Part shown: piece by piece, positions 6,001-9,158 of the stretch
Numbering within the stretch: position 1 is the first letter of the stretch
How the letters are laid out: the number at the start of each line of letters is the position of its first letter
IMG/VR virus record: IMGVR_UViG_2519899561_000027
Strand: one strand, 5' to 3'
Source: a virus
Taxonomy: Duplodnaviria > Heunggongvirae > Uroviricota > Caudoviricetes
Length of the DNA: 9,158 nucleotides
Made by a program: the position numbers

Positions 6001-9000
6001 TGTGTGTGTCGGGATCTTTTTTCAGCAAATTATCCCCAGCGGCAAATCGAATACACAACCAGCGCCACCGCCATTGCAATACCAACATTTGAGAAGGCTT
6101 CAGGCCAGCTCATTGGCGCACCTCCTTCGGCGGTTCTGGTAGCGGCATCCAGTGTGTGGCTTCACACACGATGGGCGCACCGAAACACTGCGCATACTGG
6201 AAGTCACCCGTATTATCCAGGTTAAAACCTGTAAACTGTTCACCCGTGCTGGACACAAACAGTTGTACATCAACACCAACTGGCGGCATTCGCTCACTAC
6301 AGCTTATCCAACCATCCGGAGTTACCGGAGAATTGCCAGCCTTGCGCATGGCAATCTCCATGATTTCAACCATATCTCCTGGTGGAATTTTACAATGCTG
6401 ACCAATATGCCTCTGCTGCCTGGCATATTCGAGGATGTGCTCCAGCTTGATACGATTAATCATGATTTATCTCCCTGAAGCATGGCTTCGCGGCAGTCGT
6501 TCCAGCCTTCAGCATAATCACTATACGCAAGAGGCCAACCGTTTCTGTATTCACGCGGCAACTTATCAGGCACTACCAGCGCTGGCGGCGCGGAGAATAG
6601 TGGTTTAGGTGATATTTCCGCACGTTTTGCGTATGCTTCAACTGTGTCAGGGTTAAACAGGATTATGTTTTCACCGCATTCCCACGCTATCGGTTCTGCT
6701 TCCAGCGATGCCAGTGCAATTTTGAATAGCTCACCCTCTACCCTGGCCATCTCTGAATTAGGGTAACAGTTCGCAACCGCTATTTTTAATTTGGCTTCCT
6801 TGATTAATTGCTCTTTGGTTAATTCAGTCATTTTTCATTACCACCCTTTCAGGCGGTCTCCTTATGTTCTGAGGGTGCAGGAATCCCTCCGGTTAAGGAT
6901 TAAATTTTTAACAGTGCTGAATTTAATTATTCAGTTCTGGATTTTGACGCCCTGCGTATCCGCGCTTTCGCGTTACGCTCAATCTGAATTAACTTTTCTA
7001 TATTTTTTCGCCTTTCCTGTTCCTCCTGGCGCAATAGCTTTACATCATCTGCCAGTCTGGTTTCTCTTTTCGCCACAGAGAGCATCCAGTCAAACGGCTC
7101 CACAACTGAACCGCAGATTTTACAGCGGACCTGACGCTCTTTTTCGTCAACCCGGACAGAGGCGTGATGGCAGTATGGTCTTTCCGATGGCTCATAAAGA
7201 AAATTAACCTGATTACGTGGGTCATCCTCTTTTACCGGAAATAAAACAATATTACTTAACTCATCTTCTGGTTTTATTTCCATGCTCCTCTCCTTTGATG
7301 CGAATGCCAGCGACGCGTAATGCGTGTTCTAGGTCAATCAGGTAAAGCCAACTGCCATTTTCTTTAGGTATCATGACTTGTCGCTCATCTGCATTTATCG
7401 GGTGTCCATATCGAAGGTCGTAGCGAGTCGGTAATTGAACTTCCCGCGCTTCCAGTTCAGCAATGCGCTTACTCCCATCCGAGATAACACCTTCGTAATA
7501 CTCACGTTGCTCGTTGAGTTGTGATTTTGCTTCTTCCAGTCCATCCAGCAAATCAGCGATAATATCCGCTTCCCGATGACGGATGTGACGCTTAAACGCA
7601 GCAAGAGCCGCATCACAATCCCGTTCAGCATTTGGGCTGTCCGGGATAGCCTGATACCACGCCAGCGTCGACTGATAGTTTTGTGCTGCCTCACGAAGCG
7701 CCTCATAGTTAACCTCTCTCATTGAGCCACCTCCTGATAAATCACCGCATGCCCCAGTTTCTCCGCCAGTGCCAGCTCTGCCTTAGCGCCCGCTGACCGC
7801 TGCCAGCCATTCAGCATATAAACCGCATCCACACAACGAATCATTGCCATGCAAATATCCATGTAGTGCGGCTGTGTCAGCCCGTCCGGAAGTACTGCCG
7901 GGTTTAAGACGGTATGCCCTTCCCGTTTCAGTGCTTCTTCCGCCCTGTGAAATGCCTCGCGGTTGAAATTTTCATATCCCGTCATTGGACCGGCGATATA
8001 AATTCTCACCCTCACGCCTGAACCCTCCTGTCGAAATAAACGTAGTTATTCACTGCACGCAACTTCATTCCGAACTTTTCGGCAATTTCCCGTCGGGGTA
8101 CACCGCGCTGATGCAGTTGCCGCGCCAGCTCAATATCACGCTGTGAATATTTTGCCGACGGGTGAAAATCACCACGTAACATCATGCTGATGCCCAGCTC
8201 CCGTGCCTTCGTTCTCACTGCCGCTTCAGTTCGTCCGATAAGCGCGCCAATGCTTTTTACCTTCATTGTTCCCGCGCACTGCCGGAGTATCAGAATTTCA
8301 GCCCGGCACCACGTCTTCCACCCACTCACCGCTGCTGTTCTCTGGTGGCGGTAATATCCCGGAGAATATCCCGGCACTTGTTCAGCTCCCGCAGCGCGGC
8401 GCAGACTCGCTCCCACTTCTGAACCTGACCTTTTACCCGGCGCAGCTCGCGGTTAGCCACATGCAGCGATGGTAGAATCAGGTCATCTGCTTTCGTTTCG
8501 GTGACCGATGGCTGTAACTTCACAATGTCTTCCACGATTTCTGTTTTCATTTCTTCCTGTGTCGTCGTTTCCTGGACTGGTAACGCAACACCTGCTGGCT
8601 GAGGAAAGGCTTTACCATCGGTTTCCGCTACGGATGCAGCTTCCGGCTCTGCCGGTAAATCAGCGCCCGGTATGCAGTAACGAAATTTACCGCCCTGATT
8701 CACGCGAATCAGACGCCCTTTGCTGATTGCCATGGCCAGCGATGAATTCGCCCGGCGGGAGGTAATCCCGAACATCAGTGCCAGCTCATCCGCCGTTTGT
8801 GGGCCATGTTGTTCAATCGCCTCAGTCAGCATTTGCGCTGTCACTTTCGGTACCGGTGACACTGGTTCACTTTCACCTGCCGAGTTAAATGGCCTCTTCA
8901 GGTCAACTCATAAGGTCAGGTACTTTTTTGTGTCAGAATGCGATTGAGAGCGTCTTACAAGGAAAACTAATGGTAAATCTCCCTCCTGAGCTGGGGTCAC

Positions 9001-9158
9001 CTGATGTATGGGCTGGTGGAGGTATTGGACTTATTGCAGGTCTGCTACTTCGATATTTCATCGTCAGAGTGTTTATCGTGTTCAGATTGTTTGGTCGTGA
9101 ATGGTCGTTTGACCTCAAGGACAGGACCAGAACAGACAACCACACAGACCCCCGTTAA

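Follow-up and report, generated by a model that had tools for sequence, protein, structure and literature searches.

Does the small open reading frame (ORF) at the right edge of a lambdoid prophage fragment belong to that prophage and, if it is a gene at all, where does it come from and what might its product do? The question is raised by the IMG/VR virus record IMGVR_UViG_2519899561_000027 (Caudoviricetes), a stretch of 9,158 nucleotides that was analyzed over its full length and is referred to here as the window. Within a region beginning at position 8863, a first-pass annotation had noted a 62-codon plus-strand ORF, preceded by a good ribosome-binding site and oriented away from the phage early operon. 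Based on the comparison with homologous loci, we find that the ORF is a conserved protein-coding gene, that its native home is an integrative island of ~12 kb, and that the copy in the window is a stranded remnant of such an island, brought next to prophage DNA by a rearrangement associated with an insertion sequence (IS). Taken together, the reality of the gene, its native context and this origin of the joint are, at the least, very likely. The features on which the argument depends are the following, in window coordinates.

8326-8880, minus strand: DUF1627/YdaW-like gene of a lambdoid prophage, 5'-truncated (Pfam DUF1627, 3.4e-81; called with "missing N-terminus" by the Prokaryotic Genome Annotation Pipeline, PGAP)
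8880|8881, no strand: rearrangement joint, read as the scar of an imprecise excision of IS1203 (IS629-type), with prophage DNA on the left and island DNA on the right
8881-8969, plus strand: last 89 nt of the native long-type leader, from the alignment to intact islands
8900-8918, plus strand: AGGTCA-N7-AGGTCA direct repeat, probably fortuitous (copies at 8900-8905 and 8913-8918)
8959-8963, plus strand: Shine-Dalgarno site AAGGA, 6 nt 5' of the ATG, read directly from the sequence
8970-9158, plus strand: small protein gene, 62 codons plus TAA, under purifying selection, with a product identical to RefSeq WP_000247742.1 ("hypothetical protein")
9009-9092, plus strand: codons 14-41, hydrophobic helix WAGGGIGLIAGLLLRYFIVRVFIVFRLF, from hydropathy, the AlphaFold2 helix and invariant alignment columns
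9087-9122, plus strand: codons 40-51, best-conserved segment LFGREWSFDLKD, from invariant or near-invariant columns of a 23-sequence alignment

The ORF starts with the ATG at 8970 and runs to the very end of the window, where the stop codon (9156-9158) supplies the last three letters; WP_000247742.1 is the PGAP call for exactly this ORF in near-identical genomes. The comparison was based on 37 ORF-bearing loci from complete genomes, assemblies and metagenomes, together with five islands that were picked only via a neighbouring gene of 184/185 codons. In all 42 loci the ORF is intact, with 58 to 62 codons and with start and stop unchanged, and in all aligned loci the AGG core immediately 5' of the ATG is kept; both the ORF and its Shine-Dalgarno site stand as first annotated. 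The 28 distinct DNA versions are 177, 183, 186 or 189 nt long and every indel is in-frame; the annotated frame is open in each of the 28 and the five other frames each in none (0/28). Variable columns number 40, 22 and 49 at codon positions 1, 2 and 3, respectively, and in 18 codon columns the variation is synonymous only. By the Nei-Gojobori method, the window differs from locus L002 by 8 synonymous and 0 nonsynonymous changes and from locus L003 by 18.5 synonymous against 4.5 nonsynonymous ones, and the overall ratio of nonsynonymous to synonymous rates (dN/dS) lies between 0.06 and 0.36. Given that the same ATG and stop are used throughout, that indels are in-frame only and that synonymous changes dominate, the small ORF is, on this codon-level evidence, a genuine protein-coding gene conserved under clear purifying selection.

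Two alternative frames were considered and rejected. An 89-codon extension from an ATG at 8889 is not conserved, the corresponding triplet being ACG in L002 and L003, and the 70-codon minus-strand ORF at 8933-9145 meets stops in the minus frames of all homologs, which removes the overlapping frame that had been named as a possible challenge to the plus-strand assignment. A non-coding reading, which takes the ORF as an accident and sees the functional element in the AGGTCA repeats or in the minus-strand frame, could point out that the ORF is left uncalled in many genomes by PGAP and other gene callers, but judged by the predominance of synonymous substitutions, the in-frame indels, the conserved start and stop, the closed minus-strand frames and the repeats that are neither conserved nor above chance, it is already refuted and we give it practically no weight.

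The two AGGTCA copies are indeed present 7 nt apart, as had been pointed out; what finds no support is a functional site. The window contains the exact pattern once and none of 200 shuffles does, a comparison for which the pattern was chosen after the fact, and some 6-mer repeated within 20 nt is found in 28% of the shuffles of the 107-nt spacer. In L002 the first copy reads AGGGCA, and the pair sits in a leader insert of ~100 nt that is specific to one sub-lineage and absent from the short-leader half of the family. Because the repeat is not above chance and is mutated or absent in relatives, it is probably fortuitous, and for the same reasons the pair was dismissed as a candidate operator.

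The origin of the gene becomes apparent from its distribution. The segment 8881-9158 is the only part of the window that recurs elsewhere, and it does so in 397 of 5,426 complete E. coli genomes (~7%). The homologous copies always lie in one kind of element, an integrative island of ~12 kb found in Escherichia (including E. albertii), Shigella, Salmonella, Citrobacter and Kluyvera. An intact representative (locus L006, 31974-43800) is inserted between tonB and yciI; across the family, the insertion site is beside yciI or within mdtG or yecE (other island loci: L007-L014, L045-L049). In L006, the island opens with a large serine recombinase (506 residues), followed by a gene similar to distal tail (Dit) genes and a TMP_3 tape-measure-like gene, and then by several small orphan genes, among them an HNH endonuclease in many copies. 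After these comes the gene of 184/185 codons, the first of the leftward operon, and then the small gene, which is divergent from all preceding island genes. Behind it come 1.1-1.5 kb in which no gene is called, then a small resolvase (~182-190 residues, in either orientation), variable cargo and the chromosome. The same gene order is kept in Citrobacter, Kluyvera, Salmonella, E. albertii and Shigella sonnei. The TMP_3-like gene, the Dit-like gene and, often, the HNH endonuclease are the only recognizable phage genes, the remaining genes being orphans.

Within this island the small gene is, to judge from its distribution, a core and under-annotated part and not swappable cargo, since all five islands sampled through the 184/185-codon gene contain it. 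In those islands the ORF is intact in 5/5 and uncalled by gene callers in 3/5, and in terms of clusters the family of the 184/185-residue protein counts 1,088 against 74 called small proteins. The ORF is intact even in the Shigella sonnei islands that have been broken by IS1, while a partial deletion of the gene was seen in NCTC9038; the family of the 184/185-codon gene is present in at least three complete Shigella sonnei chromosomes. Separately, in the O157:H7 strain Rafaela_II, whose island lies in yecE (L016, 6089-7575), an IS1203 copy splits the small ORF after codon 19; this is the same IS type as that found at the window joint in the O111 strain 11128, at a different position.

A tblastn search of 50,697 deposited phage records gave no homolog of the small protein, and among 185,579 species-representative genomes a single one carries the gene, adding one locus. 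Intact YdaW-type prophages hold replication and immunity genes at the corresponding place, so there is no synteny with lambdoid early genes either. The initial placement of the gene in a lambdoid prophage is therefore abandoned, as the native copies are all in the island and no phage record matches. No description of this island family was found in the literature searched, and the family appears uncharacterized and may be a phage satellite. A candidate that came to mind, SpLE2 of O157 Sakai, is ruled out, since it maps beside sbcB (PMC3519850).

In the intact islands, the small gene has a transcription unit of its own. A consensus scan found a back-to-back promoter pair in every intact locus scanned, at the following positions.

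L003, 4841-4906: promoter pair, back-to-back
L007, 7850-7916: promoter pair, back-to-back
L010, 7854-7919: promoter pair, back-to-back
L012, 7822-7888: promoter pair, back-to-back

The promoter facing the small gene is of the sigma-70 type with an extended -10 (TTAACA-18-TATAAT with an upstream TG, as in TGgTATAAT; 10-11 of 12 matches), and the one facing the leftward main operon reads TTGACA-17-TAGTAT, also with a TG. The leader downstream exists in two classes, a short one, in which the -10 lies ~82 nt from the ATG, and a long one with an extra insert of ~100 nt. The native leader contains a hairpin, GTGGCTAT...ATGGTCAC, which in the short class lies between an A-tract and a U-tract and is attenuator-like. 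This hairpin is kept despite one-sided (G.U to G-C or A-U) and two-sided (A-T to G-C) changes, and it tolerates loop insertions of 15-55 nt; because the stem survives such compensating changes and insertions, the pattern argues for an RNA stem rather than a protein operator. In E. coli-type copies, a terminator hairpin (CCCCTrTAC...GTAyAGGGG, with loops varying by locus) and a T-tract follow 15 nt after the stop codon, which places the terminator just outside the window. As read from these signals, the small gene is monocistronic in intact islands, with a near-consensus promoter, the leader hairpin, the ORF and the terminator, and its native promoter looks constitutive.

Two further observations concern the promoter region. 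The -35 boxes of the pair are ~8 bp apart and the pair, made up of two strong promoter-like sites, is conserved in all intact islands; it is surrounded by repeated TTAAC(A/T) motifs, which may be operator sites for some regulator. No recognizable DNA-binding domain was found in any island protein.

How, then, did the gene come to lie next to a prophage gene? Intact DUF1627/YdaW homologs have 244-258 residues and the match in the window begins ~73 codons in, that is, the ~73 N-terminal codons are missing together with the replication and immunity genes upstream of them. In the O111:H- strain 11128, an IS1203 copy occupies exactly the joint, with ...CACCTGCCTG as its left flank and GTAACGAGTTAAATGG... 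as its right flank (in longer form, ...TTTCACCTGCCTG | IS | GTAACGAGTTAAATGG...). The window retains the footprint TTTCACCTGC|CGAGTTAAATGG, in which the IS and 7 nt are gone. Loci L001 and L021 and seven complete O111-type genomes have one base fewer than the window, and strain 8E keeps five bases, TGAAC, from the start of the IS end. With IS1203 at the identical site in strain 11128 and three differing IS-free footprints, 8880|8881 bears the signature of an imprecise excision of an IS3-family element. A route of insertion, deletion and excision is documented for IS3-family elements and has been demonstrated experimentally for IS3 with the IS excision enhancer (PMC8860574).

A simple deletion was ruled out as the source of the joint, since tonB, which is present in 5,423 of the 5,426 genomes, is retained ~0.4 Mb away in E. 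coli E2855, a strain that carries this joint. There tonB stands beside a 291-bp stump of the large island recombinase, and because this stump lies ~0.4 Mb from the small gene, we infer that in the O111 lineage a large rearrangement broke the island in two and its middle part was lost. The island middle, including the promoter and leader hairpin of the small gene, is at neither of the two places in E2855. The joint appears to have involved an inversion (~0.2-0.4 Mb) or a complex rearrangement, in addition to the loss of the island middle. In the very likely order of events, an IS1203-associated rearrangement followed by imprecise excision of the IS fused the end of the leader to the beheaded DUF1627 gene. 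At the other end of the split, in E2855 (L043, 20811-21351), the serine recombinase stump by tonB is followed by an IS3-family remnant.

These results change the reading of the window. Positions 8863-8880, at the left of the supposed intergenic region, are a remnant of the 5'-truncated DUF1627 gene, and what follows is the scar and the tail of a foreign leader; the region is not a divergent control region. Nor does the divergent orientation relative to the phage early operon point to shared regulation, given that the juxtaposition was made by the IS1203-associated rearrangement. Within 8300-9158, a consensus scan found no promoter-like site on either strand, and the retained part of the leader folds no better than shuffled sequences (z = -0.06). 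The sole candidate signal is a weak extended -10-like element, TGTCAGAAT, at 8931-8939, seen by eye. The window copy is, on the available comparison, a stranded remnant whose ORF is intact, whose protein is identical to that of intact-island copies and which retains no recognizable promoter, and it is probably silent or weakly expressed.

The product of 8970-9158, MVNLPPELGSPDVWAGGGIGLIAGLLLRYFIVRVFIVFRLFGREWSFDLKDRTRTDNHTDPR, has an acidic N-terminus, continues with a hydrophobic stretch and ends in a mixed-charge tail, in which positions 42-62 include five basic and five acidic residues. Residues 19-37 have a mean Kyte-Doolittle hydropathy of 2.2, and AlphaFold2, run on a 25-sequence alignment, predicts a single helix for residues 11-50, with block means of the predicted local distance difference test (pLDDT) of 89-95 for residues 21-40 and low-confidence, non-helical ends at 55-62. 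As originally described, the protein is predicted to span the membrane once, with a charged tail behind the helix. The hydrophobic helix contains a glycine zipper (G16xxxG20xxxG24), in which G20 and G24 do not vary across the 23-sequence alignment and position 16 is Gly in the window and Ser in some members. In the family alignments R28 and R33 are invariant, and position 39 is R or K. Under the positive-inside rule, one would expect the acidic N-terminus in the periplasm and the C-terminal half, which is rich in arginine, in the cytoplasm, and LFGREWSFDLKD is predicted to be membrane-adjacent on the cytoplasmic side. This topology, in the inner membrane with the N-terminus outside and the C-terminus inside, we regard as reasonably probable.

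Among single functions, the likeliest for the small protein is that of a protective inner-membrane factor of the superinfection-exclusion type, acting in the resident state of the island, an assignment that we put forward only tentatively. It is suggested by the fact that the gene has a constitutive-looking promoter of its own, points away from the structural operon, belongs to the island core and survives in decayed islands; the peak of conservation at a juxtamembrane motif, and not in mere hydrophobicity, was also counted in its favour. Mechanistically, the protein would insert in the inner membrane with the N-terminus out and the C-terminus in, would self-associate through the glycine zipper, and would use the conserved arginines and the LFGREWSFDLKD motif to bind a specific partner; in the integrated state, it would block the entry of incoming phages or rival elements or disturb them. 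The tape-measure and Dit genes of the island suggest, purely speculatively, a tie to tape-measure-dependent DNA entry. The explanation as a whole, that is, a stranded island gene that may encode an exclusion-type membrane protein, is one towards which we lean with modest confidence.

Several points weigh against this explanation. Two invariant arginines fall within the predicted membrane span and the position-independent sum on the Hessa scale is +1.3 kcal/mol, and for these two reasons insertion as a classical transmembrane helix is plausible and not certain. The promoter and terminator calls come from consensus scans only, and in the window TGTCAGAAT could still give some transcription. The island itself could be a satellite, a decayed prophage or something else. 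Finally, the homology searches provide the small protein with no function: there was no match in Pfam at E<=1, none of any function in PHROGs at E<=0.01, none in NCBIfam at E<=0.01 and none in PADLOC, the sole PDB sequence at E<=10 was an insignificant hit to a dehydrogenase (E = 1.6), and an exhaustive profile search of 1.84 billion cluster representatives retrieved 11 proteins, all of them close relatives.

The most far-reaching reading makes the protein a constitutive effector, namely a new phage-entry or abortive-infection factor, and sees in the islands tail-manipulating satellites of a new class; the protein would then act with or against tape-measure-mediated DNA entry. It draws on the tape-measure and distal-tail set, the only such genes in the islands, and on 1-1.5 kb of strongly conserved non-coding DNA, and we consider it unlikely. 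In the paper on Tai tail-assembly-inhibition systems, which were considered as possible relatives, a search brought up no transmembrane protein.

Unlikely as well is a factor for lysis timing (a holin, an antiholin or a protein like LidI), with which the island would start lysis or shift its timing while exploiting a helper phage. The small protein is like LidI in size and architecture (PMC7182436), and the phage tail genes and recombinases of the island are what a satellite might have. However, neither an endolysin nor a spanin was found in the island in the loci examined, where the neighbours of the small gene are the 184/185-codon gene and the gene-less DNA, and Pfam and PHROGs gave no match to a holin or lysis family. 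The gene is moreover intact in islands that can no longer be mobilized, and its promoter is constitutive-looking and lies apart from the structural operon, in contrast to LidI, which appears on infection only.

Doubtful to a similar or marginally greater degree is a membrane-depolarizing toxin, type I toxin-like or part of an addiction module, which would stabilize the island; the cell would tolerate low expression and would be killed or arrested by overexpression or when a repressing RNA is lost. The small size, the one hydrophobic helix with a charged tail, the glycine zipper, which is typical of pore-forming helices, and the retention of the gene in decayed islands would all suit a toxin, and the attenuator-like leader hairpin between its A-tract and U-tract could hold expression low. 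Nevertheless, no member of Hok/Gef, Ldr, TisB, Fst or another toxin family was matched (Pfam, E<=1; NCBIfam, E<=0.01), and a consensus scan of five loci (L003, L007, L010, L012 and the window), which weak promoters could escape, found no antisense promoter-like site on the minus strand in or beside the ORF. The terminator looks bidirectional and would stop antisense read-in, a near-consensus promoter is unusual for an unguarded toxin, and the charged juxtamembrane motif is conserved above the hydrophobic core.

On a par with the toxin, and thus equally doubtful, is a small protein of the MgrB, AcrZ or SafA type that modulates a membrane protein of the host and would alter a transporter or sensor kinase for the benefit of the host or the island. 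Such a role would accord with the specific juxtamembrane motif and invariant arginines, which suggest a defined protein partner, and with monocistronic, apparently constitutive transcription, but the gene is strictly tied to a single mobile island and is not part of core genomes, as seen among the species representatives, and the protein showed no homology to known small regulators.

Some observations were made on the surroundings of the gene, both in the islands and in the window. The gene-less DNA lies directly 3' of the small gene and outside the window (L001, 9459-10968; L003, 5279-6738; L007, 8184-9456). It has no called gene in more than 12 loci and keeps 70-87% nucleotide identity across Escherichia, Citrobacter and Kluyvera, between loci for which the synonymous sites of the neighbouring ORF are saturated. 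It is rich in short hairpins with GC stems, some of which seem to covary, as for example GAACC..GGTTC / AATAC..GTATT / GTAAC..GTTAC around a CCTTCGG loop. No Rfam match was obtained for it at E<=1, RNAalifold returned weak energies and few well-supported compensatory pairs, and a search for iterons gave only the two copies already known. This DNA may encode a large non-coding RNA or serve as an origin or as a site of packaging or recombination. The orientation of the small resolvase that follows varies between loci (L001, 10969-11517, minus strand; L007, 9457-10002, and L012, 9251-9823, both plus strand). The oppositely oriented genes are not flipped DNA copies of each other, and in three loci an inverted copy of a 31-nt segment is found ~1.6 kb away. 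An invertible segment around the resolvase was considered and is unsupported, as the opposite resolvases are distinct genes and only weak inverted repeats are present.

In the prophage part of the window, the following were recorded, the first three by Rfam matches at gathering score in the late-regulatory part and the last with coordinates carried over from the PGAP annotation of L001.

592-653, plus strand: AgvB (anti-GcvB) small RNA
655-847, minus strand: STnc100 small RNA
933-992, minus strand: tRNA
5342-5599 and 5605-5904, plus strand: ParD/ParE type II toxin-antitoxin pair

The ParD/ParE pair is on the opposite strand within the leftward series of prophage genes.

For the window, the result is mainly corrective, as an apparent divergent gene pair with a shared control region is resolved into a rearrangement scar and a cut-off passenger gene, and it calls for caution when gene neighbourhoods are read in IS-rich genomes of enterohaemorrhagic E. 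coli. At the same time, the gene illustrates well how a conserved small protein, predicted to be in the membrane, can often be passed over by annotation pipelines, as in three of the five islands sampled independently of it, and it marks an unstudied island family that is carried by about one in fourteen complete E. coli genomes as well as by the Shigella sonnei chromosomes mentioned above. Should it be true that the protein protects against phages or that the island is a satellite, new experimental handles would follow. The island family, most of which lies outside the window, is a more promising subject than the window feature itself.

In comparison with known systems, the joint resembles the insertion-deletion-excision route of IS3-family elements (PMC8860574), with IS1203 at the exact site in sister strains and three small footprints; it differs in that here a gene was separated from its promoter and no operon was built. 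The small protein shares with type I toxins (Hok/Gef, TisB, Ldr, Ibs/ShoB) a short hydrophobic single helix and a location on mobile elements, and these toxins too often have long structured 5' leaders, whereas the small gene lacks a family match, a promoter for an antisense RNA and a mok-like overlapping frame, and has a strong native promoter and a conserved, specific charged motif. HK97 gp15 is reportedly a prophage inner-membrane exclusion protein that acts on tape-measure-dependent DNA entry, and the lactococcal and streptococcal Sie/Ltp proteins are small membrane-anchored superinfection-exclusion proteins. With both of these the small protein would have in common its small size, its membrane anchoring and its expression in the resident state apart from lytic or structural genes, and the island has a tape-measure gene. 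Unlike it, those proteins have ~100-160 residues or more, some being lipoproteins or having two helices, and no PHROGs match links them to the present family. Work on HK97 gp15 is cited in PMC11364771 (references 15 and 16).

LidI is a transmembrane protein of 66 residues from the PLE satellites of Vibrio cholerae, previously unannotated, whose expression is confined to phage infection and which collapses lysis inhibition (PMC7182436). Compared by description only, the two differ in that the promoter of the small gene is its own and looks constitutive and that the island lacks a demonstrated helper phage. They are alike in being tiny proteins of phage-related integrative islands, transmembrane in LidI and predicted to be so here, that were missed by annotation and whose homologs are confined to their own element family. 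The small-protein family is, in this sense, an orphan of a familiar kind, that of the small membrane proteins of phage-related mobile elements.

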